The position numbers and the translations under genes were made by a program. A stretch of 37,602 nucleotides of DNA. It comes from Alphaproteobacteria bacterium. Its GTDB lineage: Bacteria > Pseudomonadota > Alphaproteobacteria > 43-37. Where the stretch lies: the NCBI GenBank assembly GCA_947488045.1, contig CANLAL010000001.1:1-37602 (forward strand), in the 5' to 3' direction. The notes below the pieces were generated by a model that was not told where the DNA came from, searched no databases, and was given only the letters and a program-made list of their open reading frames with translations. Shown here piece by piece: positions 1 to 15,609 of the stretch. Positions within the stretch are counted from its first letter, which is position 1. Each line of letters opens with the position of its first letter.

Positions 1-737
1 ACTAAGGCCCCACAAAATACCGCGAGTTCGCCGCTTCCCGGAACGAAATGAAGTTGCAAATAGTGGGCAAATACGTGGTTTCCCACTAAATAGGCAATCA
101 GGCAATAACAACCTGCCACGATCATTACGGGGACGATGGCTAAGCCATCTAATCCATCGGTCAGGTTGACTGCATTCGAGGCTCCCACCACCACAAGCAT
201 GGCAAAAAGGGTGTAAAACCAACCCATATGAATCAGCACATCTTTAAAAAACGGTACACTTAGACCATTTTGAAGGGGGTGAGCATGATTGAGGGCAATC
301 AAAATGCAGGCTATCGCACTCACTGAAAATTGAAGAATCAGCTTTTTTGTTCCAGAGAGACCCTTTGCATTCCGCTTTGTAAGCTTTAGAAAATCATCCA
401 TGGCCCCTATTAAGCCAAAGCCTAAGGTCAAAAGTAGCACGATCCACATAAAGGGGTTATGCCAATCACTCCAGAGCAATGTGCTAATTGTTAAGACTGT
501 TAAAATTAATAGGCCACCCATGGTGGGAGTGCCTTTTTTAACAAAGTGGGTATGTGGGCCATCATCTCGAATAGGCTGACCTTCCACTTGTTTGGATTTG
601 AGCCAGCTGATAATCTTGGGCCCAAGGAAAAAACTGAGAATGACTGCAGTAATGGTAGCCCCTCCCGTACGAAATGTCAGGTATTTAAAGACATGAAGCA
701 CCCCCCAATCATGGGCTAAAGGCAACAATAGATGCAT
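1..737 (-). CDS. mraY: phospho-N-acetylmuramoyl-pentapeptide transferase MraY, N-terminal ~245 codons; the gene runs off the window start
   Basis: Not in the ORF track because no stop lies in the window. Hand translation from the ATG at 737-735 gives MHLLLPLAHDWGVLHVFKYLTFRTGGATITAVILSFFLGPKIISWLKSKQVEGQPIRDDGPHTHFVKKGTPTMGGLLIL, matching the MraY N-terminus. Its ATG overlaps the murF TAA (TAATG). Position after murF is the canonical dcw order. Confidence 0.9.
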   Translation of the reverse strand, partial: MHLLLPLAHDWGVLHVFKYLTFRTGGATITAVILSFFLGPKIISWLKSKQVEGQPIRDDGPHTHFVKKGTPTMGGLLILTVLTISTLLWSDWHNPFMWIVLLLTLGFGLIGAMDDFLKLTKRNAKGLSGTKKLILQFSVSAIACILIALNHAHPLQNGLSVPFFKDVLIHMGWFYTLFAMLVVVGASNAVNLTDGLDGLAIVPVMIVAGCYCLIAYLVGNHVFAHYLQLHFVPGSGELAVFCGAL

Positions 738-2182
738 TAACATAAGGTGACTTCCTTCTGTTTTCCATGAGCATTCATGAATTGGATGGCCTCTAATACA
801 CGGACCATTTTCATACTATTTGAGCCCTTGATCAGAATGGTATCGCCCCCTTTAATTTGGCTGACTACTTTTTGGGAGAGCTGCTCAACATCTGCTGCCC
901 AGTAGGCGGATAATGAGGTAGAGGCAATCTTATGCAGATGGTGCATCATGGGGCCGCATACGTAAAGTTGATCTACACCTGCTTTTACAAGATGTTCTAG
1001 TACCGCCTCATGGAGCGCTTTTGAATCATGCCCTAATTCCAACATATCGCCTAAGACAGCAATTTTACGGCCTTCACTGCCTGCCAATACAGCGATACCT
1101 GCTGCCATAGATGTAGGATTTGCGTTATAACTATCATCAATTACGGTAACCGTTCCTCCACTGCTGAGTGGAATTTTGATTTCCATGCCACGGCCTTCTA
1201 TTAACGTGAGGTTTTTTATGTCATTGGCGGCTTGAATCAAATCTGCTCCGGCTGCATGCAATGCTGCAAAGATACCTAATGTATTTGAAACCCAATGATC
1301 TCCTTTAAAACCTAGATCTACTAAATAATCTTTTCCAAAAGCCGTGAGCACAATCTGCTGACCTTCTGCCGAAACCCTGTGTGACTTCAAGTGCACATCC
1401 CACTGAGGTGCTCGACCAAAGGTCATTACATGTGCGACTTGAGCTTCATGGGCACGCTTAAGGAGTAAGTCAAAACAAGGGCTATCACCATTAAGGACAG
1501 CCACACCTTTTTGGCGATCCAAACCCACAAAAATTTCTGCTTTTGCATTGGCGATGGCTTCCATTGATCCCAACCGTCCCATGTGGGCCATTCCAATGAT
1601 GGTGATCAACGCCACCTGAGGACGGACTTGAATGGTAAGCCGTCGAATTTCACCCAAAGCATTCATCCCCATTTCAAAGACCCCATACGCCGCATCTTGC
1701 TCAAAATTAGCTAAGCTGAGGGGAACGCCCCAATGGTTATTATAGCTTTTCTGGCTGGTGTTTGTTTTTTTCTGAGCCCCTAAAAGAAAACCCAAAGCAT
1801 GGCGTACACTGGTTTTTCCCACACTTCCCGTGACACCAATAATTGTGGCTGCGCTCCGCCCGCGGGCTTCATTGCCCAATAGTTCTAGCGCTTTGAGCGT
1901 ATCAATCACCATCAGATGAGGTTGCCCTGCGAGAACATTTTGCATTTTTTGAGCCTTAAGATGATCCACGATCACGAGGCTTGCGCCACGCTCTAGGGCT
2001 TGCGATACATAGGCATGCCCATCTGCAACTTCACCTTCGATAGCCACAAAAAGTTCGCCAGGTACAAGGGTTCGGGAATTAATTGAAACCCCGGTAATTG
2101 AGGTGCATGTATCAGGTAAATGTGATTCTTTTACGATGGGGCTTAAAGTCTTGATTATGTCTTCCTTGATCCATAATGTCAT
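737..2182 (-). CDS. murF: UDP-N-acetylmuramoyl-tripeptide--D-alanyl-D-alanine ligase
   Basis: 481-aa ORF with the Mur ligase ATP-binding loop IIGVTGSVGKTS and DDSYNANP. It sits between murE and mraY. Confidence 0.93.
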   Translation of the reverse strand: MTLWIKEDIIKTLSPIVKESHLPDTCTSITGVSINSRTLVPGELFVAIEGEVADGHAYVSQALERGASLVIVDHLKAQKMQNVLAGQPHLMVIDTLKALELLGNEARGRSAATIIGVTGSVGKTSVRHALGFLLGAQKKTNTSQKSYNNHWGVPLSLANFEQDAAYGVFEMGMNALGEIRRLTIQVRPQVALITIIGMAHMGRLGSMEAIANAKAEIFVGLDRQKGVAVLNGDSPCFDLLLKRAHEAQVAHVMTFGRAPQWDVHLKSHRVSAEGQQIVLTAFGKDYLVDLGFKGDHWVSNTLGIFAALHAAGADLIQAANDIKNLTLIEGRGMEIKIPLSSGGTVTVIDDSYNANPTSMAAGIAVLAGSEGRKIAVLGDMLELGHDSKALHEAVLEHLVKAGVDQLYVCGPMMHHLHKIASTSLSAYWAADVEQLSQKVVSQIKGGDTILIKGSNSMKMVRVLEAIQFMNAHGKQKEVTLC

Positions 2183-2188
2183 TATATA

Positions 2189-3691
2189 TCACCTACACAG
2201 CATTTTTGTTACTTGAATATCGTCAAAAGGGAACACCTGATCGCCCACGATTTGGCCTTGTTCGTGACCTTTCCCTGCAACAACGATGATATCCCCTTTT
2301 TGTGCCTGCGCACAGGCTTTTTCGATTGCAGCACGACGATCGCCGACTTCCATGGCGTGAGGACCACATCCCTGCAAGATGTGGCTGCGAATGGCTGCAG
2401 AATCTTCAGATCGAGGATTATCATCTGTCACAATGACTTCATCGGCATTACGTGTTGCCGCTTGGCCCATTAAGATCCGTTTTGTAGGGTCACGATCCCC
2501 GCCACATCCAAAGACCACCCAAAGTTTCTCAGAAGTATGGCCCTTCAGAGCTTCTAGGGCTGTAGCAAGGGCATCAGGCGTATGGGCGTAGTCAACGAAT
2601 ACGGTGGCACCTTGAGCAGTTTTCCCCACCAACTCCATACGCCCCCGCACACTTTTGAGATGCTCCAGTGCCTTTATTGCACTGGGCAAATCCACACCTG
2701 TGGCCAAAGCCAGACCTAATGCACATAGGGCGTTCTGAATTTGAAAAGGACCTAGTAGGGGCAATGAAAATGTATATTTTTTGTCAAATACCTCACAAGT
2801 CACTTCAAAGCCGTGGGATGTTGGATTTATATTTTCAATCCGCAGGTGATGAGCTTGATACCCATAATCAAACACACGGATATGGCGGCGTTCGCATATT
2901 TTTTTCAAGGGCTCAAACTCTGGAACATCTGCATTTAACACAGCAGTTCCTGCGGGCAATAAAACTTCTTCAAATAAACGGATTTTAGCCTTGAAATACT
3001 GCTCCATTGTACCATGGTAATCTAGGTGATCTTGACTCAACTGGGTGAATCCTGATGCATTCATTGATACCCCTGAAAGGCGATACTGCTCTAACCCAAT
3101 GGATGAAGCTTCCAAACTCACATGCGTTATTCCTGCTTCTGCAAGATTTTGTAAAGTTTGGGAAAGGGTGAGCGCATCAGGTGTGGTTAATGTGGAGTCT
3201 ACCTCAACCTCTCCTACGTCAGCCTCTAAGCCTACAGTCCCCCAATAGGCAGAAATATGACCCGCGTAGGACCATATTTGCCGCACAAAGCTGGCCACTG
3301 AACTTTTTCCATTGGTGCCCGTTACGGCCACAAGCGTTTTTGGTACATTGGGATACATATGGGCAGCAATCTGGCTTAGAGCATAGCGAACGTTCTCAAC
3401 CTTGAGAAGGACAACGCGATGATATGCTGCCTGTTCTTGCACTTGAATAGGAAGGGCAACACCTGATTCCATCAGGACAACCTGAGCCTGTCGAGCAATG
3501 GCCTCCTCGATATATAATGTCACACGCTCACATTCTTGGGCTAAGCAGACATAAAGACCACCTGGATGGATCTTGCGTGTATCTGAGGCAATATGGCCGA
3601 TGTCATGATAGGGAAGGCCACCGGGGGTAATGTGATCGCCATAGTGCGTCACATTGAGACCGTGCAGCAAGGAACTTAAGGTGTTAGCCAT
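2189..3691 (-). CDS. murE: UDP-N-acetylmuramoyl-L-alanyl-D-glutamate--2,6-diaminopimelate ligase
   Basis: 500-aa ORF with P-loop VAVTGTNGKSS and a DDNPRSEDS motif typical of meso-DAP-adding MurE. dcw order fits. Confidence 0.93.
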   Translation of the reverse strand: MANTLSSLLHGLNVTHYGDHITPGGLPYHDIGHIASDTRKIHPGGLYVCLAQECERVTLYIEEAIARQAQVVLMESGVALPIQVQEQAAYHRVVLLKVENVRYALSQIAAHMYPNVPKTLVAVTGTNGKSSVASFVRQIWSYAGHISAYWGTVGLEADVGEVEVDSTLTTPDALTLSQTLQNLAEAGITHVSLEASSIGLEQYRLSGVSMNASGFTQLSQDHLDYHGTMEQYFKAKIRLFEEVLLPAGTAVLNADVPEFEPLKKICERRHIRVFDYGYQAHHLRIENINPTSHGFEVTCEVFDKKYTFSLPLLGPFQIQNALCALGLALATGVDLPSAIKALEHLKSVRGRMELVGKTAQGATVFVDYAHTPDALATALEALKGHTSEKLWVVFGCGGDRDPTKRILMGQAATRNADEVIVTDDNPRSEDSAAIRSHILQGCGPHAMEVGDRRAAIEKACAQAQKGDIIVVAGKGHEQGQIVGDQVFPFDDIQVTKMLCR

Positions 3692-5385
3692 TAATGATGC
3701 TCCACCAGTGCATTGGCTTTAAAAATTTCATATTCTGGAGATGTTGCCTCTTCTTCCTCAATGGGGGTAACGCCGAGCATGGAGGCACTGCGCGCCACCA
3801 CATTCTTAACGATGGGCGCCGCTATCCAACCTGCGGTGGCGAATCCGTGAGAGTCCTTATTCCCTTTTGGTTTATCCACCATCACCATCACTAAATATTT
3901 AGGATCAGACATGGGAAAGGCCGAAATAAAAGTAACAATATTATCGCGACTGTACTTGCCATTTACAACTTTTTCGGCTGTTCCTGTTTTACCGCCGATA
4001 TCATATCCCATGGCTTTTGCATTGCGCCCCGTTCCATGTTGAACCACCAATCTCAACAAATTGCGCATGGTGTGCGATGTTTTTTCTGAAACCACCCGAA
4101 TACCAGGGTCTTTATGACCTTCCTTGATCTTTAAAAGAGTTGGTCGTCTTAAGATACCACCATTAATTGTGGAGCATACGGCGTTTGAGATTTGCATGGG
4201 GGAAATGCATATACCATAGCCATAGGCCATACTCATGGAATTAAGCTCTTTCCACTCCCCTGGAACAATGGGCGCGCCCACCTCAGGTAACTCTAATATT
4301 GGGGCTTGCAGCAACCCAAATTTTTTCAGGTAATCTTGATGAGCAGGAACACCTACGGCTTTTACCATATGAATCATGCCAATATTGGATGAATGCAAAA
4401 AAATCTGAGGAATATCAGCAACAATTTTTTTAGGGTGGTAATCCCGAATTTTGAACCGCCCCACGCGGATGGGTTCTGAAATATCGAAACGACTATTTAT
4501 TTTAACCGCCCCACTTTCCAATGCCAATGCCGTGGTTAAAATTTTCATGCTGGACCCTACCTCATAAACCCCTGAGGTCACCATATTGAACATATTTTCC
4601 GGCGCCGTTTTGGCTATCTCATGGGGGTTGTAATCGGGCAAAGAACACATGGCCACCACTTCACTCGTATCCACTTTCATAATGAGGCCTGCGCCCCCGA
4701 TGGCCTTAAACTGTTTCATTTTTTCTTGAATTTCGCTCTTCAGAATATGCTGAACCCGCATATCGATGGAAAGTTCTAAAGGACTTTTATCGCTAATCAA
4801 AGCCTCATCAAAATACTTTTCAATGCCTGAGACGCCTTTATTATCAACGTTTGTGCACCCCAAAACATGAGAAAACAGAGAACCATGCGGATACACACGC
4901 TTTTCCTCACGCTGAAAACCAATACCAGGCAGGCCCATCTCATAAACCGCACTTTGCTGTTGCGGAGTCAGATTTCTTTTAATCCAGGCAAAACCTTGCT
5001 GAGACTTCAATTTAGTCAAAACTGTTTCATATTTTAGATCAGGCAAAACCTGAGCCAATTGTTTGGCTGTTATTTCAGGGCTAATCACATTTTTGGGATT
5101 CACATAAAGAGATTGGGTTACAAGACTTGTAGCCAGAATTACACCATTCCGATCAACAATATCTGCGCGTGCAATTTCTTCTTTGATTCCTGCATTTACA
5201 AATTCGGATTCATCTTCAGGGGACAAAAGCATCAACTGCCCTAATCGTCCTCCAATCACCAGAAAAGCCACAATGAATCCGACCATCACAATGGTCAGGC
5301 GGGTTTTTGCCATATCATCGGAAACAGCGGCTTTTTTCACTCTGTTCGCGTTTAGTGCAGAAGGAGGGTTGCGCAGTTCTTTCAA
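3691..5385 (-). CDS. ftsI: penicillin-binding protein 3 / peptidoglycan D,D-transpeptidase FtsI
   Basis: 564-aa ORF with an N-terminal TM anchor and the transpeptidase triad SxxK (GSSMKI), SxN (HSSNIG) and KTG (GGKTGTAE). It overlaps the murE start by 1 nt. Confidence 0.92.
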   Translation of the reverse strand: MKELRNPPSALNANRVKKAAVSDDMAKTRLTIVMVGFIVAFLVIGGRLGQLMLLSPEDESEFVNAGIKEEIARADIVDRNGVILATSLVTQSLYVNPKNVISPEITAKQLAQVLPDLKYETVLTKLKSQQGFAWIKRNLTPQQQSAVYEMGLPGIGFQREEKRVYPHGSLFSHVLGCTNVDNKGVSGIEKYFDEALISDKSPLELSIDMRVQHILKSEIQEKMKQFKAIGGAGLIMKVDTSEVVAMCSLPDYNPHEIAKTAPENMFNMVTSGVYEVGSSMKILTTALALESGAVKINSRFDISEPIRVGRFKIRDYHPKKIVADIPQIFLHSSNIGMIHMVKAVGVPAHQDYLKKFGLLQAPILELPEVGAPIVPGEWKELNSMSMAYGYGICISPMQISNAVCSTINGGILRRPTLLKIKEGHKDPGIRVVSEKTSHTMRNLLRLVVQHGTGRNAKAMGYDIGGKTGTAEKVVNGKYSRDNIVTFISAFPMSDPKYLVMVMVDKPKGNKDSHGFATAGWIAAPIVKNVVARSASMLGVTPIEEEEATSPEYEIFKANALVEHH

Positions 5386-5717
5386 GAGCCCTCTCCTGAT
5401 ACCACATGCCCTTGGAGAACAGCTTGGACAAGGTTTTCCTCTTCTACCACGCGCATGACCTCATATAGATCAACCACTTGGTTGTGAAGAAGCGGTTTTA
5501 GCCCCAAAAACTGATCAGAGAGCTTTTGCAGCCGATCTGGTTGCGTGAGATAACTCCACTCCGCCTGACAAACCTTGATAATTTCTTGGTTGTCGGCAAT
5601 CTTTTTTTCTACCACTTGGAGCTGAGACTCTAAGGAAGAGACCCTGTATTTTACTTGAAAAAGAACCACACCAAATAATATGGAACCGATCACAAAAATA
5701 AAAGTGACTAGCTTCAT
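5382..5717 (-). CDS. ftsL: cell division protein FtsL (small bitopic membrane / coiled-coil protein)
   Basis: 111 aa with a single N-terminal TM helix (LVTFIFVIGSILFGVVLF) followed by a coiled-coil-like segment. There are 4-nt overlaps with both rsmH and ftsI. It occupies the canonical slot between rsmH and ftsI. Confidence 0.8.
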   Translation of the reverse strand: MKLVTFIFVIGSILFGVVLFQVKYRVSSLESQLQVVEKKIADNQEIIKVCQAEWSYLTQPDRLQKLSDQFLGLKPLLHNQVVDLYEVMRVVEEENLVQAVLQGHVVSGEGS

Positions 5718-6670
5718 GGTCCCATCACTCCTTCTTCCCTAACCACCTCCATGCGCATTGCAGCACGTAATTTAGCAGATCTCGACCGAGGATTGATTGT
5801 GATTTCAGCTTGTGTAGCTGATTGAGGCTTGGGAGTAAGCACATGCCATACACGGGATGGGGCTTGACGCCCGCCTGGATGATAGCGAGAAGCACAGGTT
5901 TGCAGTTCAACTTTCTCACTTAAGGCATTTTTTACAATGCGATCCTCCAAAGAATGGAACGATACCACAACAATACGCCCCCCAGGAACAAGCAAGGCTT
6001 CAGCAGCTTTCAACGCCCTCTCTAACTCTCCCAATTCATCGTTTACATAAACCCTTAGCGCCATAAAGGTACGCGTCGCGCCATCTAAGCCAGGTTGATA
6101 GCCTACGATTTTGCGAACAATATCTGCCAGCATTTGCGTCCGATCAATCGGCGTTTCTTCACGTACGCGTACAATAGCTTTGGCGATAGCTCGGGAACGC
6201 CGTTCTTGCCCATATTTCCAAATAATATCTGCTAGTTCTTTTTCTGAATGATCCGCCACCACATCCGCTGCTGACAAACCTTGACCGGACATGCGCATGT
6301 CTAAAGGCCCATCTGACTGAAACGAAAAGCCCCGCTGGGCTTCATCCAATTGTGGGGAGGAAACGCCTAAATCAAGCACGATCCCATCCACCTGGGTTAC
6401 ACCTTGAGTGGCTAAAAGCCCCTGCATGTTGCCAAATTCACCTTCTATCAAGGTTAGGCGATTGTTATATTCTGACTTTAACGCTAACCCCCGTTTTATG
6501 GCATCTGGATCACGATCAATTCCAAGCACGTGCACATCTGCTTTTTCCAAAAGCGCTCGGGCATATCCCCCTGCGCCAAAAGTACCGTCTACATAGGTCT
6601 GTTTTGGCAATGGGTTCAATAAGGCTACAACTTCTTGGCACATAACTGGGAAATGGACAGATTGCATCAA
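5714..6670 (-). CDS. rsmH: 16S rRNA (cytosine1402-N4)-methyltransferase RsmH (MraW)
   Basis: 318 aa carrying HFPVM, the SAM motif DGTFGAGGY, plus GIDRDP and DLGVSSPQLD. Confidence 0.94.
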   Translation of the reverse strand: MMQSVHFPVMCQEVVALLNPLPKQTYVDGTFGAGGYARALLEKADVHVLGIDRDPDAIKRGLALKSEYNNRLTLIEGEFGNMQGLLATQGVTQVDGIVLDLGVSSPQLDEAQRGFSFQSDGPLDMRMSGQGLSAADVVADHSEKELADIIWKYGQERRSRAIAKAIVRVREETPIDRTQMLADIVRKIVGYQPGLDGATRTFMALRVYVNDELGELERALKAAEALLVPGGRIVVVSFHSLEDRIVKNALSEKVELQTCASRYHPGGRQAPSRVWHVLTPKPQSATQAEITINPRSRSAKLRAAMRMEVVREEGVMGP

Positions 6671-7134
6671 GCCTGCCCTCCTTTGATCACATGAAAAGGC
6701 AAACTCATTTCACCCTGTTGAAGACGCAAACGGGCTTGTTCTTTATGATGGGCAAAGGCTGCTGGTTCCCACATTTGAAAGGTTGACCCACACCCCACAA
6801 AAGCAACCTGGCCATGAATATTCGCATGTTTAACTAAGCTTTCGGGGAGCGTAATACGTCCCTCAGAGTCAAAGGCAAGATGTTCGCAATCGGCAAAAAT
6901 TGCAGAGGTATAATCACTTCTTTGCGATGAAAACATGGGCATTTGATCGACTTGGCTCACCATACGTTCCATGATATCACCCCCAAAAACCTCAATGGCC
7001 TTTGTCGCATAAGAACGTAAGGCAACAAGACCTGAAACAGGTTTTTTTTCCAAGGCTGTACGAAAGCTTGCAGGAACGGAAACACGGCCCTTTTTATCCA
7101 GCTTATTGACATATGTTGATACAAATATCGACAT
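6667..7134 (-). CDS. mraZ: transcriptional regulator MraZ
   Basis: 155 aa with two SpoVT/AbrB-type repeats, DKKGRVSVP and DSEGRITLP. It is the first gene of the dcw block. Confidence 0.93.
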   Translation of the reverse strand: MSIFVSTYVNKLDKKGRVSVPASFRTALEKKPVSGLVALRSYATKAIEVFGGDIMERMVSQVDQMPMFSSQRSDYTSAIFADCEHLAFDSEGRITLPESLVKHANIHGQVAFVGCGSTFQMWEPAAFAHHKEQARLRLQQGEMSLPFHVIKGGQA

Positions 7135-7214
7135 TTTTGACGGTTACCTTGGTCCAAACTTATATTAATGCACCCCACCTTATGACAGGATTGAGGCATA
7201 CGACCCCTTAGTTT

Positions 7215-7269
7215 TGGGATAACATGGGATAGCATGGGAGTCAATGGGATTTTTTGGGAAACCATGGCA
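7215..7269 (+). promoter_or_regulatory. putative MraZ operator: five perfect and one degenerate TGGGA-N5 direct repeats with exact 10-bp phasing
   Basis: TGGGA occurs at 7215, 7225, 7235, 7245 and 7255, and TGGCA at 7265 (tgggataaca tgggatagca tgggagtcaa tgggattttt tgggaaacca tggcaa). The array lies 81-135 bp upstream of the mraZ start at 7134. E. coli MraZ is reported to bind direct GTGGG/TGGGN repeats separated by 5-nt spacers. Confidence 0.65.
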
Positions 7270-7551
7270 AACCCTTATTCAGCGCGTGTATTTTTAATAT
7301 GGGAGCTGACCCATTAAAGTTTAGTTAAGATTTCTATTCAAACCCCTTGTTTTTAAGGAGTTTCTAATTTTCTTGAATGATAAAATGCAGCTTTATGATT
7401 CTATTATTTGTTCGTTATTGACACTTATTTTTCATCCTAAAGAATAAAAGGATATTAATGCTTGCATCTAACCAATTGATTTCCTAGCATGAATAGTTAA
7501 TTTTTTCTTAATCCCTTATTTCGACAAGTAATGTATAGGGCATGATGAGCC

Positions 7552-8706
7552 ATGACACGTAATATTGTTTTTGCAGGATTTGCTATTTTTGCCATGTTCT
7601 TTGGCTCTGGAAATATCGTCTTCCCCTTAAGCTTGGGGCGAACTTCAGGAGATGTCTGGGCATATGCAATGGTAGGATTTTTTTCTACAGCTGTCATTGT
7701 GCCATTCTTGGGCTTAATTGCCATTGTGCTTTTAAAAGGCAGTAGCGCCCGCTTTTTTGAAATTGTAGGCACAGGGTTAGTGTATTTGGGTCACAAATGC
7801 GGACTTCCTAAAAAACCCGTGGCTTTTGTTGGGGCGAAAATAGGCGCCCTCATGCAACTCTTCATCATTGCGCTTATCGGGCCATTTTGCATCATTCCTC
7901 GCTGCATTACTGTAAGTTACGGCGCATTTAAATTTACGCATTTGGCGCTGGAAGAATATATCTTTGCGGGCCTGTTTTGCTTGAGTTTATGGGCACTGAC
8001 TCTGCGCCGCGAACAAGTCATCCCTATCATCAGTAAGTTTTTAACCCCCATTAAGTTTTCACTCATTTGGCTATTAATTGGCTTAGGCATATATTATGCG
8101 CCTATAACACAATTGGATGCATGCAATGCCGCTGAAACTTTCCAGTTAGGTGTGCTCAGTGGTTATAATACGATGGACCTTTCTGCAGCCATCTTTTTTG
8201 CAGCTGCAATAATGGGATTTTTTAAGAGCGTTGATGGGAATAATACAAAGGCTCTTCTTAAAGATGGATTTTATGCCAGCATCATTGGTGCCAGTTTACT
8301 CACGGCTGTATATATTTGCTTTGTCTATTTAGGAGCAATATATGCCCCTCTTACCTGCCATGTTCCCAATGTGGAAATTCTTCCTACCATTGCTCAGCAC
8401 GCCCTAGGGCCATCAGCGAGTATTATTTTTTGCATCACGATTGTTTTTTCATGCCTTACCACTTCTGTGGCTTTAACGACTTGTTGGATGGACACGCTGA
8501 AGGAACTCAACATATTCAATGAAATTTCTTATCAAACCAAGCTCTTGATTAGCCTAGTCATTAGCTACACGATTTCCATATATCTTGGTTTTGATAAAAT
8601 TCTTAATCTGATGGGCCCGGTTCTTGAGGTGCTTTACCCTGCGTTGATTCTCATAGCTATCATTCACATTCTGAGAGAAGTCTCAGCCATGAAAATTAAG
8701 CGCTGA
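7552..8706 (+). CDS. brnQ: branched-chain amino acid transport system II carrier (LIVCS family, BrnQ-like)
   Basis: 384-aa polytopic membrane protein. The N-terminal signature FAMFFGSGNIVFPLSLG matches the BrnQ GAGNLIFPP motif. It is shorter than the roughly 430-440 aa I recall for BrnQ. Confidence 0.75.
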   Translation: MTRNIVFAGFAIFAMFFGSGNIVFPLSLGRTSGDVWAYAMVGFFSTAVIVPFLGLIAIVLLKGSSARFFEIVGTGLVYLGHKCGLPKKPVAFVGAKIGALMQLFIIALIGPFCIIPRCITVSYGAFKFTHLALEEYIFAGLFCLSLWALTLRREQVIPIISKFLTPIKFSLIWLLIGLGIYYAPITQLDACNAAETFQLGVLSGYNTMDLSAAIFFAAAIMGFFKSVDGNNTKALLKDGFYASIIGASLLTAVYICFVYLGAIYAPLTCHVPNVEILPTIAQHALGPSASIIFCITIVFSCLTTSVALTTCWMDTLKELNIFNEISYQTKLLISLVISYTISIYLGFDKILNLMGPVLEVLYPALILIAIIHILREVSAMKIKR

Positions 8707-8746
8707 GTTGATGCACCTTTGCTGAGCTAAGGGAATGCTGTTTTCT

Positions 8747-9286
8747 TTAAGAATCATCTCCGTCGTCCAAATCCTCTGATGTGTCATCAAGAGAGGTATC
8801 GGGTGAAGTGTCACCACTTCTGGCTAGAGCATCCTCATCTAAATCTAGGCCAGCATCGGTGCTGGAATCAGAATCATCATTGGAACTTGAGCTGGAATCA
8901 GAATCATCATCTGTAATAGCAGAGTCATCAGAAAGAGATTTGACCGCACCTAACCCTACTGGTTTAGGACAATTTCCTGGAGGAGGTAACATTTTTCCGC
9001 TTTGAGCTGCATCGGTTGCTGCTGCAACGGACACCCCAGAGGCAGCCATCAAACACCCTGGAATAATTTTTTGAGGGCACTGCTTGCACCGATCAAATAA
9101 GGTTTTACTTGAAGCACATGCCGCAGGTGTACAGGCGAAACGGCAAAAAAATGTGCCTTTATCAACGCTTGAAACAACACCTTGTGGAGAGTCAGTCGAC
9201 GCTGTATTTTGGCTATAGCTTGCTCCGGAGAAACACAAAATTCCTAAAAGAATCGCGAGCGCATAATTTGAAAAACGTGAGACCAT
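8747..9286 (-). CDS. secreted Cys-rich protein with Asp/Ser-rich acidic C-terminal tail (orphan)
   Basis: 179 aa with a signal peptide (MVSRFSNYALAILLGILCFSGASYS). The mature part has 9 Cys (FFCRFACTPAACASS..CKQCPQKIIPGC..GNCP). The last ~70 aa are about half D/S/E. I recognise no family. Confidence 0.6.
   Translation of the reverse strand: MVSRFSNYALAILLGILCFSGASYSQNTASTDSPQGVVSSVDKGTFFCRFACTPAACASSKTLFDRCKQCPQKIIPGCLMAASGVSVAAATDAAQSGKMLPPPGNCPKPVGLGAVKSLSDDSAITDDDSDSSSSSNDDSDSSTDAGLDLDEDALARSGDTSPDTSLDDTSEDLDDGDDS
8861..8910. repeat. in-frame tandem duplication inside the acidic tail coding region
   Basis: The 20-mer gctggaatcagaatcatcat occurs at 8861-8880 and again at 8891-8910. The period is 30 nt (10 codons) and it encodes the repeated DDSDSS motif. 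Confidence 0.8.
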
Positions 9287-9393
9287 TGTTCAACCTACCT
9301 TTTAACCCATCATTTCCTTTAGGGAATGACCATAAAATCTGATAAATCCATCGTAATCATGAACTCTTAAAAAGCCGTTAATGCTTGCAATTC

Positions 9394-9756
9394 CTAATAA
9401 CTGCTTATCCCTGCATCTCCAGGCAAACTATTCATGCCCCCCATCACTTGGGAAAATACTCCCCCCGTTGGAGGCTCGGGATCAGTATCATTTTTACGCG
9501 TAAAAAAAGATGAATATGTGCCTGGTTTCATTTGATAGTCACGATACAATTCCTGTATTTTTTTAAAGAGAGGCGCCAATATATAAAAAAGATTATCCTT
9601 CCCCCCCAAGCCCAGTCTTGATTGGCTGACCGCAAGCTCACTTGAAAGAGCAGAGTGAAGCCGTTGCAGATCAAAACCTATCGCCGCTATTTCTGTTTCA
9701 GACCCTAAAAGCTGAACCAAATGATGTATCACTTCTTGCCAATTTTCTTCCTGCAA
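9394..9756 (-). CDS. hypothetical protein; probably the C-terminal part of a frame-disrupted gene together with 9729..10136
   Basis: The 120-aa frame opens only 8 codons upstream of a TTG and has no ATG until residue 75. It overlaps the upstream ORF by 28 nt. See the finding on the A5 run at 9773-9777. Confidence 0.4.
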   Translation of the reverse strand: MQEENWQEVIHHLVQLLGSETEIAAIGFDLQRLHSALSSELAVSQSRLGLGGKDNLFYILAPLFKKIQELYRDYQMKPGTYSSFFTRKNDTDPEPPTGGVFSQVMGGMNSLPGDAGISSY

Positions 9757-10136
9757 AGCATGGTTGAGCGAGAAAAATGCCTACGAAGGCCCGCCCTGCA
9801 ACCTACCTTAACAGCCGCTTGCATTTCACTTTCAATTTGCTCTTGCAACCCCTCTTCAGTTTCCATTCCATCCCGAATCATCACAGCCAAGGCTCTGCGA
9901 ATTAGTAAGGAACACCAGCGCAAATCTGCTCTCACAGGAATATTTAATTCGAGAGTTGATAAATAACTTTCATAGGGAGTATCGCCGAATAACTCATTCA
10001 AAAGCCCATGCCCAAAATGAGCGAAAGTTTCACCTGTCTCATCATCTGTATATAGTGTGGGATTCAACCACCCATCAGAAAAAGATTGTTTTCCGCCAAG
10101 AATTGAGCAGGCGTAGAAAGATGGTTTAGATGCCAT
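9729..10136 (-). CDS. hypothetical protein without signal peptide; possible N-terminal part of a split gene
   Basis: 135-aa ORF whose ATG is immediately preceded by an in-frame TGA. The last ~25 aa (RRHFSRSTMLCRKKIGKK) look out of frame. Confidence 0.45.
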   Translation of the reverse strand: MASKPSFYACSILGGKQSFSDGWLNPTLYTDDETGETFAHFGHGLLNELFGDTPYESYLSTLELNIPVRADLRWCSLLIRRALAVMIRDGMETEEGLQEQIESEMQAAVKVGCRAGLRRHFSRSTMLCRKKIGKK

Positions 10137-10279
10137 TCAATGAACGATATATCATTGGTAAGCGGGAGGCTTGGCTCGTGACCTAAAGGAACAGTAGAGT
10201 CTAACTCAATGGATGCGACAGCCTCACTTATAACGCTCTCATCCGGATCATCTGACCGCGCTTCATGTAATTGAGCGAG

Positions 10280-10678
10280 CTAATCATTTCTTTCAGCTGC
10301 CATTGCCCTGCGGATTTCAACCTTATTTTCTGCATATACTGCATTAGTACGAGTATGCAATATTTGAGTGGGGCTTACGTTAGAACACGCAGGAACCCTA
10401 GGCGCTCGAGGAGCGCCACCACCTTCCTCCTGTCCGTTTCTTTTATGCCATTCACGAACACGTTGGCGCCATTCTTCAGACGGAACCAAACCCGCATGAT
10501 GTGCATTCCAATCTGCGATCTCCTGATATTTTCTACCCGCAATGCCATATGTGTTATACGTTGGAGGTTTTGGAGGATCACTTTCCATCTGCGCCTCAGA
10601 TGAGAATGATCCACAGATCATCAATAAACAGCAGAATTTTTTTAAGAAATAAGCGGTCATTCGGTCTTTCATGCTCAT
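10280..10678 (-). CDS. small secreted orphan protein
   Basis: 132 aa with a signal peptide (MTAYFLKKFCCLLMICGSFSSEA) and a W/R/E-rich mature region. I recognise no family. The opposite-strand ORF 10271..10603 looks like a shadow. Confidence 0.5.
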   Translation of the reverse strand: MSMKDRMTAYFLKKFCCLLMICGSFSSEAQMESDPPKPPTYNTYGIAGRKYQEIADWNAHHAGLVPSEEWRQRVREWHKRNGQEEGGGAPRAPRVPACSNVSPTQILHTRTNAVYAENKVEIRRAMAAERND

Positions 10679-10751
10679 TTCTCCAAGATTTATTGCACAT
10701 GGTTAAGCATGTAAGACTATTCTTAACAGCACGTTAAAATAAAAATGACAA

Positions 10752-11135
10752 CTATTCGCTTGATCTTTCTTCCGCAATCATGGCCACAACTCGATTAAGC
10801 CGCCGCTCTGTACGCGTCAATTCCTGTTGAATTTTATCTAATCGCATTTTCTTATCGTATTGGATCCTTCGGGAAGGTGCAGTTTGTGCTTTTAACGTTC
10901 TAACAAATTCCATTTCCAACCTCTTCTTTTTTTCTAACAGCTGTGTACTTTCCTCTAAAAGCCTTAAATACTCTTGGCTTTGCAAGCTGTGCAAGTGGCT
11001 CCGGCATAGCCAACAGGTTACGGATACTCTCATTTCTTGGAGTATAACTCCATCGCTTTCTCTGCACCTTGAGAGGAGCGCTTCCAGTACACCCTGCCTG
11101 CTCTTCTGCCTGAGCACACGCACCTGACATCCCAT
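10752..11135 (-). CDS. coiled-coil ORF overlapping 10900..11550 in another frame; either the 3' part of a frameshifted gene or a short gene starting at ATG 10913
   Basis: The C-terminal 80 aa are strongly coiled-coil-like (LQSQEYLRLLEESTQLLEKKKRLEMEFVRTLKAQ...ELTRTERRLNRVVAMIAEERSSE). An internal ATG at 10911-10913 is preceded by AAGAGG-N6. Confidence 0.35.
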   Translation of the reverse strand: MGCQVRVLRQKSRQGVLEALLSRCRESDGVILQEMRVSVTCWLCRSHLHSLQSQEYLRLLEESTQLLEKKKRLEMEFVRTLKAQTAPSRRIQYDKKMRLDKIQQELTRTERRLNRVVAMIAEERSSE

Positions 11136-11550
11136 CCTCTTGTTGTTTCTCTAAAGGTAACTGCCCTAAGGTCGACTGCTTTGCCCTCGCCTCTGCTAAT
11201 GACTGACGATAATATGCTTCAGCTTGAACTCTAGGCCTTCCTACTACAATCTCCCATAAACTCAATCTTTCAGCCTCATGGAGCCCTGTTGCTCTTTCTT
11301 CAAATTTTTTTTGAGCAGACTCTAAATCACACCTAACCGCACTGAACAACCTCTCTTTAATGTCAAGCTCGTCCATATGGGGCCTCATTAGAGTCCCCAC
11401 TCTTGCAGCATGTTGATAGTCGATGCCAGAACTTTGACTAAGAAAACTTGGCTGTGCAGAACATATTGTTGTTTGAATTGCTGCAATGGGGAGAAACCAC
11501 TTAGCCTTTAAAATATTGCTTGTCATTGGCTTATCCTTTCCTTTTGGCAC
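10900..11550 (-). CDS. secreted coiled-coil orphan protein
   Basis: 216 aa. A signal-like segment (MTSNILKAKWFLPIAAIQTTICSAQ) is followed by a helical E/R/A/Q-rich region. The last ~75 aa overlap a second open frame. Confidence 0.5.
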   Translation of the reverse strand: MPKGKDKPMTSNILKAKWFLPIAAIQTTICSAQPSFLSQSSGIDYQHAARVGTLMRPHMDELDIKERLFSAVRCDLESAQKKFEERATGLHEAERLSLWEIVVGRPRVQAEAYYRQSLAEARAKQSTLGQLPLEKQQEDGMSGACAQAEEQAGCTGSAPLKVQRKRWSYTPRNESIRNLLAMPEPLAQLAKPRVFKAFRGKYTAVRKKEEVGNGIC

Positions 11551-11940
11551 ACATTTTCACCCAGACACAAATTTACTTTGTTTTAAGAGAAAAGTTTAAT
11601 CACACCCAATTATTGGGATTTCTGCTACCGCTGGATATCTAGGCAAATTATTTTTAAAAGTACATGCTAGGTAATTTTTCTCATCTCTCATTCATTGATT
11701 AATTTATGCATTGTGGTCTGTTATGAGAGGAGCTCTAAACTTAATGAAAAATGTGTGTTTGATTTGCTTTTTGTTGGGCGCTTTTATAGCCCCTGCTGTT
11801 GCTTAGTGTTATATAAACTTTAACTTGAAGCACAGCAATGCTTCGCTCAATGTTTTATTTAACTTGAACTTTAATGTAATTTTATAGTTCAACGCTTAAT
11901 ATATGGTTAATTACTTGTCATTTATGGGCATCCAATCCTA

Positions 11941-12735
11941 TCATATGTATAAGCTAACTCCTATCAAGAGTATTCCCAACACCACGCGATAGAGTGCAAA
12001 TGGTAATAAGCTTATCCTTTTAAAGAGTGGCATTATCACGCTGATTGCAACCAAACCAATGATTGCAGAGAGGCTTGCAACCAGAATGAAATGAGGCGTA
12101 AAAAGAACTTCACCAAATTTTTTGGCTTTGAAGAAAATTAATATTCCAGCTGCTGCAGTCACAGGCAATGACATCAGAAATGAAAAGTGGAAGGCTTCGT
12201 CTCGAGCAAAGCCTAGTATTCTTGCCATACTCACTGTTGTGCCAGATCGACTTGCTCCTGGAATTAACGCACAAACTTGCGCACATCCGATAAGAAAAGC
12301 TTGCAAAACAGTCATTTGATCTCTTTTGAATTTTTCTGGCTGAACTCGATCTACATACCCCATCGCCGCCCCAAAAATCAGGCTCGCTAAACCAATAATA
12401 AAAAGTGAAGGGCCCATTTCTACGCCACGCCCACTCCACAATCCACCCACTACTATGGTAGGGATTGTGGCCACGACAATCAAAACTAGTTCTTTTGGAT
12501 ATTTCCTTAAAGTCACTAATTCTTTGATTTCATAAATAAAATTAACCACATCTTTTCGAAAGTAGAGCATAACTGCGCAAAACGTCCCCATATGAGCAGC
12601 CATGTCCATTGTTATCCCCTGGTCATGCCAACCTGTCAGCAAGGGGAGTAACATTAAGTGGCCACTTGAACTAATCGGTAAAAACTCAGTAATTCCTTGT
12701 ATAAGAGATACTATAACCAATTGTATGGTGGACAT
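11941..12735 (-). CDS. uppP: undecaprenyl-diphosphate phosphatase
   Basis: 264-aa polytopic membrane protein carrying the BacA/UppP motifs LPISSSGHL and PGASRSGTT. Confidence 0.93.
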   Translation of the reverse strand: MSTIQLVIVSLIQGITEFLPISSSGHLMLLPLLTGWHDQGITMDMAAHMGTFCAVMLYFRKDVVNFIYEIKELVTLRKYPKELVLIVVATIPTIVVGGLWSGRGVEMGPSLFIIGLASLIFGAAMGYVDRVQPEKFKRDQMTVLQAFLIGCAQVCALIPGASRSGTTVSMARILGFARDEAFHFSFLMSLPVTAAAGILIFFKAKKFGEVLFTPHFILVASLSAIIGLVAISVIMPLFKRISLLPFALYRVVLGILLIGVSLYI

Positions 12736-12849
12736 GGTGGCTTCCTCTTCTTATAATGAGGGACGCTCGTCCCTTTGCAAAAAAAATGTTATTGTCATGA
12801 CAAATCCATAAGGTATGTTTGTCAAGATATTATAGGTCACACATAAACA

Positions 12850-13518
12850 ATGAGAACTCTCTACCATACATGGCTTTGCCCCTTTTCAAGAAAAATCCGC
12901 CTACAACTTGCGGAGAAAAAGCTCGATTTTACTCTAACTTTTGAAAAAATTTGGGAAAAGCGGCCCGCATTTCTTGAAATGAATCCTACGGGTCAAACGC
13001 CTGTTCTAGTGGATTTAGATGGGACTGTTGTTGTGGGAAGCATTCCCATAGGGGAATACATTGAGGAAGCTTATCCTCAGCATCCTCTCATGAGCTCTGG
13101 GCCTGCTGAGCGGGCTGAAGCCAGACGTCTCATCTGTTGGTTTGAGGATAAGTTTTATCATGAGGTCACTCATAATCTTGTATTTCAAAAAACCATCAAA
13201 CGCCATATTGAGAAAGTCGGACCTGATTCTAACCTGATTCGAGAGGGCCAAACCCGCATCCATGACCATTTAGAATATATTTGCTATCTCACAGACCACC
13301 GTAAATGGCTGGCAGGAGAAAGTATTAGCCTTGCAGATATTACTGCGGCAGCACAGCTTTCTGCCATTGATTATCTTGGGGACGTTCCCTGGAGCAAACA
13401 TATCCTCGCCAAAGATTGGTATGCACGCATTAAATCGCGCCCATCCTTTCGATCCTTATTACAAGATCGATACCCTGCCCTTACACCTGCAAGCCATTAT
13501 CATGACCTCGATTTTTAA
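12850..13518 (+). CDS. glutathione S-transferase family protein
   Basis: 222 aa. It has an N-terminal thioredoxin-like GST fold with a CPFS active-site-like motif (LYHTWLCPFSRKIRL), plus QTPVL and a C-terminal helical domain. Confidence 0.8.
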   Translation: MRTLYHTWLCPFSRKIRLQLAEKKLDFTLTFEKIWEKRPAFLEMNPTGQTPVLVDLDGTVVVGSIPIGEYIEEAYPQHPLMSSGPAERAEARRLICWFEDKFYHEVTHNLVFQKTIKRHIEKVGPDSNLIREGQTRIHDHLEYICYLTDHRKWLAGESISLADITAAAQLSAIDYLGDVPWSKHILAKDWYARIKSRPSFRSLLQDRYPALTPASHYHDLDF

Positions 13519-14374
13519 AACAGGCTCACTATTTTGTTTCGGCTTAGGCTACGTAGCGCAGCATCTATTTGCCACATTAAATCAAGAGGGCATAAGGACC
13601 CAAGGCACACACCGTATTGGGCCCTTAGGATTTGACGGGAACTCTAGGAATTCTCAATTAATTCCTGCGATCCAAGAAGCTTCTCACATCCTTATCTCAA
13701 TTCCTCCTAATGATGATGGAGATCAGGTATTGGCACACTACGCTGACGTTTTAAGGGAGGCCACACCTTCATGGATTGGCTATTTATCCAGCACCAGCAT
13801 TTATGGAGATCATCAAGGCGCATGGGTTGATGAAACAAGCCATTGCCATCCTACATCTCCAAATGGCAAGGCACGCTTAATTGCAGAACAACAGTGGATT
13901 GAAAGCTTTCACTCAGTGGGGCTGCCTATCCATATTTTCCGGCTTTCCGGTATTTATGGGTTAGGCCGCAGTGTTTTTGACACGCTAAAGAATGGCACAG
14001 CACAAAACATTATCAAACAAAATCATGTTTTTTCTCGTATTCATGTGGATGATATTGTCAAAACACTTCTAACTAGCATAGAAAATCCTATGCCAGGTGA
14101 AATTTACAATGTAAGCGATGATTTGCCTGCTTCCAGCAGCGATGTTCTGTCCTATGCTTGCCAAATCAGCGGCCTTCCCTGCCCTGAACCCGTTGCTTTT
14201 GAAAAGGCCATATTGAGCCCCATGGGAAAAGGATTTTATAAAGATCACAAAAGAGTTAGCAATCACAAAGTCAAAGAAAAGCTAGGGCTAACTCTCGCAT
14301 ACCCTAGCTATAGAGAAGGATTACAGAGTATTCTTACAAGCAAATTGGCTTTGAAAGCAGACAGCTTTAAATAA
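13502..14374 (+). CDS. NAD(P)-dependent epimerase/dehydratase family (SDR) protein
   Basis: The track ORF starts at 13331 inside the GST gene. The plausible start is ATG 13502 (MTSIFKTGSLFCFGLGYVAQHL, a Rossmann GxGxxA). The motifs SSTSIYGD and RLSGIYGLGR are typical of this family. It overlaps the GST stop by 17 nt. Confidence 0.75.
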   Translation: MTSIFKTGSLFCFGLGYVAQHLFATLNQEGIRTQGTHRIGPLGFDGNSRNSQLIPAIQEASHILISIPPNDDGDQVLAHYADVLREATPSWIGYLSSTSIYGDHQGAWVDETSHCHPTSPNGKARLIAEQQWIESFHSVGLPIHIFRLSGIYGLGRSVFDTLKNGTAQNIIKQNHVFSRIHVDDIVKTLLTSIENPMPGEIYNVSDDLPASSSDVLSYACQISGLPCPEPVAFEKAILSPMGKGFYKDHKRVSNHKVKEKLGLTLAYPSYREGLQSILTSKLALKADSFK

Positions 14375-14400
14375 TAACTTTCCTGCTGAAAATAAACTCA

Positions 14401-15609
14401 TCACAGAAAGACGTGCAAGCCAACGCCTAGATAACGAAGGGGCTGACTATAAAACTGCCCATGCATTGACCGACCTTGATAAAACTCAAGCATCAGTTGA
14501 GTGACGTGCCTATTGAAGTGTTCATTTTCAAGCTGCACGCCCACTTTCATAGAAGTGTTTGGCCGCCAAGCTGCTTGTTCAGGGAAGGTGAGATCGATCC
14601 CCCCCACAGGCCTCAGTTGATCATGCCAGTAAGCATGTTTATGACGATACTCTAATCCACACTGGGCGTGTGCACGCTTAATATCTGTCGGCTCGGCATG
14701 TACTTTATAACCACCTCCGCCATAGAGGCGGACACCATTCGGCTGCTCATGGGAAATCAAATAAGAGAGTGTTTCATAACTCAAATTGACTCTCTTTGTT
14801 TTTTTTCCCTCAGGAGTGAGCATAAATTCATCTCCCAAGTGAGAACTTAAGTGGAAAACACGAATCATGTGAGCCCAAGAACCGTTAGTAAGTGCAGCAA
14901 AAGCCCCTCCCACATAATCTGCATTAATAAGCGCTGAAGGAGAACGTCCGATATCCATTACGGCAAAGAGTGCTGCTTGAACACCAATCTCTATCTGTAT
15001 GTCGTTATTTAACGTATGACGATAAAAAGGAAGTGTTGCACCAAAATTTGGAGAGAACACGTGAGTCGCTAAGGGACTCGTAAACAAATTATGATAAGCA
15101 AGAGAGAAACGAGGCCAGCGGGGATCAGCCAATAATGGTTTAAATATACTGGGTGATATCATAAACCCATCAGTAAATTTGTTTGTACCTAAGGGATCTA
15201 CAGTAACGTTTGGTTTAGAAGATGCCGGGACAATCGCTACGCTTTCTAAGGAAATCTCTGGCTTTTCAGCCCCTGAAATAGGCTGGGAAGCGTCCGCACG
15301 AAGCATTGAATGAACAGGCAAAAAAACGACGTGATTAACCCCACGGATTTCTTTTAATGCCTTCATAAATTTTTCACGCGTTGCAGATGAAGGTCCCTGC
15401 TTCGGTAAATATGGCGTAAGATAAACTGTATTGTTTTTTACAGAAAGCGCATAAGGGGTTGGGCTATAATGCATTTCCATCACGGCCTGGGCATATCCTT
15501 CTATATATGCGTCTTCTCGCTTGATAGAAGCTCCCTGTAAAATACTGTTAAAAGACCCCTGAAAAAGCAGCACAAGAACAATAGTTCTAGCAGAGATTTT
15601 TTTTAACAT
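14401..15609 (-). CDS. secreted/outer-membrane protein, DUF1207-like C-terminal domain
   Basis: About 402 aa from ATG 15609 (the track uses GTG 15624). It has a signal peptide (MLKKISARTIVLVLLFQGSFNSILQGA). The motifs FKPLLADPRWPRFSLAY and HLSSHLGDE, the ~400-aa length and the C-terminal aromatic residues resemble my memory of Pfam DUF1207. This is a family of ~410-aa proteins from Chlamydia and other intracellular bacteria. Not verified. Confidence 0.6.
   Translation of the reverse strand: MLKKISARTIVLVLLFQGSFNSILQGASIKREDAYIEGYAQAVMEMHYSPTPYALSVKNNTVYLTPYLPKQGPSSATREKFMKALKEIRGVNHVVFLPVHSMLRADASQPISGAEKPEISLESVAIVPASSKPNVTVDPLGTNKFTDGFMISPSIFKPLLADPRWPRFSLAYHNLFTSPLATHVFSPNFGATLPFYRHTLNNDIQIEIGVQAALFAVMDIGRSPSALINADYVGGAFAALTNGSWAHMIRVFHLSSHLGDEFMLTPEGKKTKRVNLSYETLSYLISHEQPNGVRLYGGGGYKVHAEPTDIKRAHAQCGLEYRHKHAYWHDQLRPVGGIDLTFPEQAAWRPNTSMKVGVQLENEHFNRHVTQLMLEFYQGRSMHGQFYSQPLRYLGVGLHVFL

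Follow-up and report, generated by a model that had tools for sequence, protein, structure and literature searches.

Three co-oriented genes for predicted exported proteins between brnQ and uppP of an alphaproteobacterium, two of them probably broken recently in one strain and intact in its sister

The window, by which we mean the whole stretch of 37,602 nucleotides that was analysed, comes from an alphaproteobacterial genome of which 1.2 Mb is assembled (~85% complete). In GTDB the whole order is represented by three species genomes. The locus lies between two housekeeping membrane genes, whose identification in the initial annotation is confirmed by Pfam, namely BrnQ (PF05525, E = 4e-57) and UppP/BacA (PF02673, E = 1e-61). 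Six minus-strand ORFs are found between them, all where that annotation had placed them. It counted them as five to six orphan genes. Their existence and coordinates hold, though the count does not, since comparison with a sister strain identifies them as fragments of three genes, named here gene 1, gene 2 and D (Table 1). As reconstructed, gene 1 is composed of ORF 10900-11550 (frame A) and ORF 10752-11135 (frame A2). Gene 2 consists of ORF 10280-10678, a previously unlisted open stretch at 10084-10279, ORF 9729-10136 and ORF 9394-9756. Codon-usage scores are above zero in every proposed frame of the three genes, and the in-frame scores resemble those of neighbouring genes. Thus, the possibility that these ORFs carry no coding signal, which had been raised at the outset, did not materialize. 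By an estimate from base composition, an open frame of 426 codons, the length of intact gene 2, would arise by chance at 44% GC with a probability of ~2e-11 per start position.

Table 1. Genes, spacer and disruptions at the locus (window coordinates)
Feature	Position	Strand	Description
Gene 1	10752..11526	-	Probable pseudogene in window strain; split by one extra base at 10986
Gene 2	9394..10672	-	Probable pseudogene in window strain; four pieces: TAG and two T5 runs
Gene D	8747..9286	-	Intact, 179 aa
Spacer	11527..11940		414 nt, non-coding, uppP to gene 1
Lesion, gene 1	10986..10986	-	Extra C (coding strand) relative to sister strain, from pairwise alignments; frame A to A2
Lesion, gene 2	10280..10282	-	Premature TAG; CAG (Gln) in sister strain
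Lesion, gene 2	10079..10083	-	T5 (coding strand) versus T6 in sister strain; frame change
Lesion, gene 2	9773..9777	-	Second T5 versus T6 in sister strain; frame change

The sister strain (strain 2) shares 93% nucleotide identity with the window and was assembled from one of the window's own metagenomes. Its contig L020 aligns collinearly with the window for 11.1 kb, at 93.4% identity. Here, gene 1 is a single open ORF of 257 codons across both window frames, encoding an intact protein of 257 aa, and the frames join between ...LLAMPEPxAQL and QSQEYLRLLEE.... Gene 2 is also a single ORF in L020, of 426 aa. A fused reading of gene 2 that ignores the TAG and bridges the two T runs, made independently of any relative, matches the L020 ORF at both junctions. 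The ~250-aa product described earlier as cytoplasmic corresponds to the C-terminal two thirds of this 426-aa protein, which has a predicted signal peptide. Past the TAG, ~65 codons of gene 2 are still open in the window, with a positive coding score and no start codon. The initial annotation had noticed frame irregularities and attributed them to turnover. The irregularities are real, though there are four of them instead of two (an extra base, a premature TAG and two T runs that are one base short), and the attribution agrees with the broken state of genes 1 and 2 in the window strain and their intact state in the sister strain. We suggest that both genes were recently knocked out in the window strain, gene 1 by insertion of one base and gene 2 by mutation of CAG to TAG together with the loss of one T from each of two T6 runs. 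The intact state would then be ancestral. Programmed frameshifting and stop-codon reassignment were considered and rejected, because TAG is the normal terminator of both genes and the sister strain has CAG in place of the premature TAG.

If the four disruptions were sequencing or assembly errors, genes 1 and 2 would be intact in the window strain too. Two of the three indels affect T5/T6 homopolymers, which differ in length by a single base, and such runs are a classic site of sequencing error. Two contigs are 100% identical to the window across all four lesions, i.e., L022 (ENA), which covers window positions 1-15341, and L025 (Logan, run ERR5863204), which covers 6884-11487 and has the window sequence at 10986; both may come from the reads that gave the window's assembly. 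If they do, the independent support consists of two short contigs, with the TAG and the gene 1 insertion lying outside both of them. One is the 573-nt L024, from a different sample, which has both T5 states at 99.65% identity (2 mismatches); the other, of 612 nt, is in ERZ21849424 and encodes the exact 135-aa fragment. However, the TAG is due to a base substitution, the extra base in gene 1 lies outside any homopolymer, and two different assemblers give the same sequence across the lesions. In addition, the three frameshifting indels and the nonsense codon all fall within the 2.06 kb of genes 1 and 2, and none occurs in 11.4 kb of other, neighbouring coding sequence, even though homopolymers of at least 5 bases are no commoner in the region (6.2 per kb, versus 8.1 per kb genome-wide). 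Under uniform error such clustering has P = 0.0036 for the three indels and P = 0.0005 with the nonsense codon included. Since the lesions recur in the Logan contig and in a contig from another sample, and the flanks are free of frameshifts, we regard genes 1 and 2 as most probably real pseudogenes, and an origin of all four disruptions in error as very improbable. Chimerism of the strain-2 contigs was also rejected, as the sole identical run as long as the MEGAHIT k of 141 is where the contigs break.

The remaining fragments of genes 1 and 2 are presumably functionless in the window strain. Alternatively, the N-terminal fragments, of 130 aa in gene 2 and 208 aa in gene 1, could still work as short exported proteins, or slippage at the T runs could rescue the full-length products. 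Both N-terminal fragments do retain a start codon, a ribosome-binding site and a signal-like sequence; upstream of the gene 1 start ATG at 11526 the window reads AGGAAAGGA. Endosymbionts rescue frameshifts at long poly(A) tracts via transcriptional slippage, which offers a precedent. However, the T runs here have just 5 bases, no canonical slippery heptamer is present, and the upstream TAG would halt translation ahead of either T run. Moreover, the N-terminal piece of gene 2 differs between the strains by 13 non-synonymous versus 2 synonymous changes and so gives no sign of constraint. Working fragments are therefore unlikely, and we favor loss of function.

The three proteins are predicted to be exported. 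Signal peptides were judged by hydropathy (11-aa Kyte-Doolittle) and by eye. The description of the ORFs as encoding mostly Sec-signal proteins is borne out insofar as all three genes have signal-like N-termini, with a prediction that is clear for D, plausible for gene 2 and marginal for gene 1. The gene 1 protein begins with a weakly hydrophobic signal-like segment (maximum score 1.6), with SAQ followed by P, so that a Pro lies just past the likely cleavage site; a helical, coiled-coil-like sequence rich in E/R/Q/L follows. In the gene 2 protein, a predicted Sec-type signal peptide (score 2.3, with SSEAQ followed by M) precedes a W/R/E-rich segment, and the remainder is largely helical. D has a strong predicted signal peptide with a score of 2.97. 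Though Sec export and a role at the envelope or the host interface would fit these features, they are predictions for all three proteins.

No ORF could be assigned to a family, as had been the impression from the start. Searches of Pfam, NCBIfam, PHROGs and PADLOC with the fragments, the read-throughs and the intact sister proteins gave nothing above threshold and only noise below it (AAR2, HofO, DUF6927, IS66), and sequence searches of the PDB gave no match. For gene 1, a word-indexed search of 5.8 billion proteins with the long fragment returned only the window's own protein, and 400 alphaproteobacterial genomes gave only chance-level matches (15-19 bits, mostly interrupted by stops). For gene 2, the C-terminal read-through found nothing in the same kind of search of 5.8 billion proteins. 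HMMER with the intact protein against 1.84 billion representative proteins found only three fragment-sized proteins from window-type contigs, and there was no match in JGI metagenomes, IMG/VR or plasmids. An AlphaFold2 model of gene 2 from the single sequence (pLDDT 38) is too poor for use. The sub-threshold noise includes one match that would make gene 2 a relic of an IS66-family transposase, i.e., DDE_Tnp_IS66 (PF03050) at residues 270-330 of the intact protein, with E 0.006-0.0075 and 16.1-16.4 bits. However, the score is below the curated cut-off of 23.1 bits, and the alignment spans only ~55 of the profile's 284 positions. The genome has no IS66 anywhere, the ends of gene 2 lack inverted repeats, its protein has a predicted signal peptide, and the HMMER search returned no transposase. 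We consider a transposase origin effectively refuted.

D differs from its two neighbours. It is intact, its length is 179 aa in both strains, and orthologs occupy the same uppP-D-brnQ slot in strain 2 and in G001, the only other genome of the same family; a fourth member is P0004. D and the G001 protein are 46% identical over the whole alignment and 51% over the matched core. This core of ~65 aa has seven invariant Cys (FFCxFACTPxACA...RCKxCPQ...GCLMAASGV...LPPPGNCP). It is followed by an acidic, Asp/Ser-rich tail of ~60 aa, which contains a 30-nt tandem duplication at 8861-8920 that is present in equal copy number in both strains. Within the family the composition of the tail is kept and its sequence is not. 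At the thresholds of this analysis, no other ORF in the genome that reaches 100 aa has an acidic tail of this kind. Its dN/dS between the strains is 0.14 overall (0.08 in the core and 0.26 in the tail). The homology check thus upholds only part of the orphan label: D has no match in Pfam, in the PDB or by fold, yet it is conserved in the family and is not an orphan at that level. The fold search used an AlphaFold2 model from a 4-sequence alignment that is too poor for use (pLDDT 50), and Foldseek with it gave nothing below E = 3. These comparisons indicate that D is an old, family-wide gene, fixed between uppP and brnQ, on which purifying selection acts. Sec is the probable export route of its product. 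We propose that D combines a small Cys core, which may hold disulfides or a metal, with a polyanionic Asp/Ser tail. The tail resembles the SD-repeat tails of Gram-positive surface proteins in its ~60 residues of DDSDSS type and its recent 30-nt tandem duplication. Unlike those proteins, D has a short, irregular tail and neither a sorting signal nor a wall anchor.

The order of genes in G001 is SDR-GST-uppP-D-brnQ-mraZ-rsmH, so that only D lies between uppP and brnQ. Genes 1 and 2 were found nowhere in G001 or G002, and no paralogs were found in the window's own genome. Because D alone separates uppP from brnQ in G001, it is read as conserved and syntenic, and genes 1 and 2 as a taxon-restricted, genus-level addition between uppP and D. 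Gain in this lineage and loss in G001 are not separable without an outgroup that carries genes 1 and 2.

This bears on the proposal that the entire 2.8 kb arrived horizontally as a foreign island of effector or surface proteins. Absence from the relative's slot and from every other source searched, together with a silent divergence below that of the flanks, which could mean later arrival or exchange, would suit such an island as far as genes 1 and 2 are concerned. The suggestion that the island separates brnQ from uppP thus survives for these two genes and fails for D, which is ancestral to the slot. Nor does composition show a foreign origin: the region stands at the 41st percentile for GC and the 48th percentile for tetranucleotide distance among 941 genome windows, and its codon usage is genome-typical. 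We found no integrase or transposase, no flanking direct repeat pair, no tRNA gene or other Rfam match, and no Pfam or PHROG mobility domain above threshold. Plasmids, IMG/VR and JGI metagenomes hold no similar sequence, and a VirB4/CagE secretion ATPase (PF03135) was not found in this 85%-complete genome. A foreign island of this extent is thus improbable. Instead, we suggest with good confidence that the three genes of the locus, all in one orientation, encode proteins that are probably exported, that D is conserved, and that genes 1 and 2 are taxon-restricted, recently broken in the window strain and intact in its sister.

The intact copies appear to be under little constraint. In pairwise comparisons of the strains, which pool both branches, genes 1 and 2 have dN/dS values of 0.60 and 0.63, respectively, versus 0.04-0.19 in eleven neighbouring genes. 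The values for genes 1 and 2 fall just short of 1 (P = 0.02 when the two are pooled), which points to weak or recent selection on the intact copies. Comparison of the spacers gives a ratio of ~1 indel to 8 substitutions between the strains, from which ~6 indels per lineage would be expected in genes 1 and 2 under neutrality. Strain 2 has none, and its ORFs therefore appear to be maintained. Divergence between the strains is greatest in the spacer that separates uppP from gene 1 (13.8% and 4 indels). This spacer contains a hydrophobic mini-ORF of 20 codons on the plus strand (11744-11806), open in both strains with 3 amino-acid changes. One odd point is left, which is the silent divergence of genes 1 and 2, at 0.06-0.08 versus 0.19-0.40 in the flanks, i.e., 2-4 times lower. 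It is conceivable, though doubtful, that the two genes moved between the strains as a cassette by recombination, which would give them a younger common ancestor than the rest of the locus. Four hits in one strain only would then indicate selection for loss. If true, an obligate intracellular bacterium would have been selected to lose an exported, host-exposed protein pair, comparable to the loss of avirulence or antigen genes.

The broken genes are best understood as ordinary gene turnover in a shrinking genome, which is expected reductive-genome biology and not a new kind of system. The host-associated setting proposed earlier is corroborated by a TLC ATP/ADP translocase (604 bits), which marks the organism as host-dependent in style. 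We take it to be intracellular, and its host is probably a protist. Among obligate intracellular alphaproteobacteria, the split genes of Rickettsia conorii and R. prowazekii are an example. As in Rickettsia, short ORFs on the same strand are pieces of one gene, the damage consists of single-base indels and a nonsense change, a close relative has the intact gene, and the genome is small and host-dependent. The present case differs in that the broken genes belong to no family, that intact and broken alleles occur in one metagenome at 93% genome identity, and that silent sites have diverged less in genes 1 and 2 than in the neighbouring genes. Genes 1 and 2 also resemble the ORFan Sec-exported proteins of intracellular bacteria in their predicted N-terminal signal, helical or coiled-coil and low-complexity sequence, fast evolution (dN/dS of 0.6) and patchy presence among close relatives. 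In contrast to those proteins, the search for VirB4 was negative here, and export of the products of genes 1, 2 and D is predicted from sequence.

For annotation, the outcome is one conserved gene and two probable pseudogenes in place of six "hypothetical proteins", and the fragments need not be miscounted as small secreted effectors. D is the better target for further work, since, besides its conservation in the family, its seven invariant Cys and its polyanionic tail, it has no match to any known fold or family. In addition, the co-occurring intact and broken alleles of genes 1 and 2 represent a natural knock-out pair for orphan function in a barely studied, translocase-bearing lineage.

The six minus-strand ORFs that the initial annotation placed between brnQ and uppP are all there as described. 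The flanks are confirmed as BrnQ (PF05525, E = 4e-57) and UppP/BacA (PF02673, E = 1e-61), and the orphan status of the ORFs holds, with no family above threshold in Pfam, NCBIfam, PHROGs or PADLOC and no paralogs found in the window's own genome. With codon usage modelled on 497 long ORFs of this genome, in-frame scores are positive along every one of the six. The ORF list is nonetheless incomplete, since past the TAG of ORF 10280-10678 the same frame stays open for ~65 codons with a positive coding score and without a start codon. Read from the window alone, this overlooked stretch and ORFs 10280-10678, 9729-10136 and 9394-9756 form one gene of ~428 codons (gene 2), interrupted by the TAG and two T5 runs.

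Features of the brnQ-uppP region and its surroundings, with two-strain divergence
Feature	Coordinates	Strand	dS	dN/dS	Remark
Gene 1	10752-11526	-	0.080	0.60	frame A, 10900-11550; frame A2, 10752-11135
Extra base in gene 1	10986
Gene 2	9394-10672	-	0.064	0.63	post-TAG stretch, 10084-10279
TAG in gene 2	10280-10282
T5 runs in gene 2	10079-10083; 9773-9777
D	8747-9286	-	0.40	0.14 (core 0.08)	intact
Tandem duplication, D acidic tail	8861-8920				30 nt; second copy 80% identical
Mini-ORF, uppP-gene 1 spacer	11744-11806	+			20 codons, hydrophobic (MKNVCLICFLLGAFIAPAVA)
Conserved block adjoining mini-ORF	11790-11900
Mur ligase ORF	2189-3691
Eleven flanking genes			0.19-0.29	0.04-0.19

A single metagenome assembly (ERZ27280207) contains two strains of the organism together, about 93% identical: the window's strain (contig L022) and a sister strain, strain 2 (contigs L020 and L023). 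The 11.1-kb ENA contig L020 aligns collinearly with the window (93.4% identity). It carries a D homolog (88% identical) and gene 2 as an uninterrupted 426-codon ORF, with CAG for the window's TAG and T6 for each T5. Both gene 2 junctions agree with the prediction made from the window, ...FLAENNLFSDGWLNP... and ...GLRRHFFSLNHALQEENW... The second contig, L023, contains uppP together with the beginning of gene 1; its overlap with L020 is 55 nt. In the joined contigs gene 1 is one 257-codon ORF, in which frame A (...PEPxAQL) runs directly into frame A2 (QSQEYLRLL...); the extra base of the window lies at this junction. Since the ORFs of strain 2 are open across the breaks in the window, we interpret the region as three genes, two of which bear four predicted inactivating lesions in the window's strain. 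Thus, the open frames of the initial annotation exist, but the five to six separate ORFs reduce to three genes. A k-mer chimera origin of the strain-2 contigs was rejected, because they break exactly at the sole identical 141-nt run shared with strain 1 (11008-11150).

The lesions recur across assemblies. L022, a contig of the ENA assembly that also contains L020, is 100% identical to window positions 1-15341, and contig L025 of the Logan assembly of run ERR5863204 is 100% identical to 6884-11487; each covers all four lesions. In another sample (ERZ28593842), a 573-nt contig spans both T5 sites with 2 differences from the window and no gaps, and a contig of ERZ21849424 encodes the exact 135-aa fragment delimited by both shifts. 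In the 15.3-kb two-strain alignment, frameshifting indels within coding sequence are confined to genes 1 and 2 (P = 0.0036 under uniform error). A 2-nt length difference between the strains at ~2189-2197 changes the C-terminal end of the Mur ligase ORF (500 aa in the window, 504 aa in strain 2).

Judged from the two-strain ratios, constraint on genes 1 and 2 is weak; the neutrality test for both combined gives P = 0.02. Spacers in this alignment show ~1 indel per eight substitutions, and the strain 2 ORFs of the two genes have none. Because several would be expected under neutrality by our own calculation from the spacer ratio, this suggests that these ORFs are still maintained in strain 2. 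The mini-ORF of the uppP-gene 1 spacer is open in strain 2 too, where it differs by 3 amino acids and by an indel that falls between its ribosome-binding site and its ATG, and the adjoining block is the best-conserved part of this otherwise fast-evolving spacer.

Silent-site divergence between the window and L023+L020 at 9500-11300 is 2-4 times lower in genes 1 and 2 than in every flanking gene (dS 0.06-0.08 vs 0.19-0.40), with steep rises in divergence near 9500 and 11300. At four-fold degenerate sites, 21 of 246 differ in the two genes and 309 of 1677 in their neighbours (Fisher P = 6e-5). This pattern is suggestive of a tract of recombination or exchange. Most simply, it is read as a more recent coalescence of the gene 1-gene 2 cassette, i.e., recombination between co-occurring strains, and all four lesions would then postdate the exchange, in one strain. 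The comparison of composition proposed in the initial annotation does not set the island apart: its GC content (43.6%) lies at the 41st percentile and its tetranucleotide profile at the 48th percentile of genome windows. No flanking repeats were found around the region, no Rfam match within it and no IS66 anywhere in the genome, and terminator-like sites are not enriched over shuffled sequence. The region is without any mark of foreign DNA.

D departs from the island picture first drawn. In G001, the only other genome of the family in GTDB, the order SDR-GST-uppP-D-brnQ-mraZ-rsmH mirrors the window, and the single gene between uppP and brnQ is a 180-aa D ortholog. Because of this shared slot, D is a conserved, syntenic gene, which the initial annotation itself had named as evidence against its reading. 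The four members of its family have seven invariant Cys, motifs such as GCLMAASGV and LPPPGNCP, and acidic tails that are not alignable. A recurrent acidic-tail architecture in this genome is not supported at the thresholds used, which D alone passes among ORFs of at least 100 aa. D is 179 aa in both strains, so the copy number of the tandem duplication does not vary between them, and evolution is faster in the tail (dN/dS 0.26) than in the core (0.08). Its signal peptide is strong by hydropathy; the structure prediction is too poor to use (pLDDT 50) and gave no fold match. D would be a Sec-exported periplasmic or surface protein with a Cys core held by disulfides or metal. A role of the polyanionic tail in binding cations or basic partners is a tentative and rather doubtful proposal.

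Genes 1 and 2 have no match in G001 or in G002, the one further genome of the order in GTDB, and gene 1 has none among 400 alphaproteobacterial genomes. With gene 2 as the query, full HMMER over 1.84 billion representative proteins turned up just three hits, all fragment-sized and from window-type contigs, and there was no match in JGI metagenomes, IMG/VR or plasmids. Family and homology searches used read-through versions of both broken genes and found no resemblance to known families of toxins or effectors. Sequence searches of the PDB gave no match, and the structure prediction for gene 2 is too poor to use (pLDDT 38). By hydropathy, a signal peptide is plausible for gene 2 and marginal for gene 1.

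The genome (1.21 Mb in 89 contigs, 85% complete, 44% GC), of which the window is one entire 37.6-kb contig, has no VirB4 match. A TLC-type ATP/ADP translocase, a hallmark of energy-parasitic intracellular bacteria, is intact (G000:C6:9440-10879, plus strand; 604 bits, 501-aa open frame). Because of this gene, the genome indicates a putative energy-parasitic intracellular lifestyle. We consider the structural account of genes 1 and 2, as two genes broken in the window's strain, to be probable. They would encode accessory exported proteins located in the envelope or at the interface with the host, dispensable and lost in this strain.
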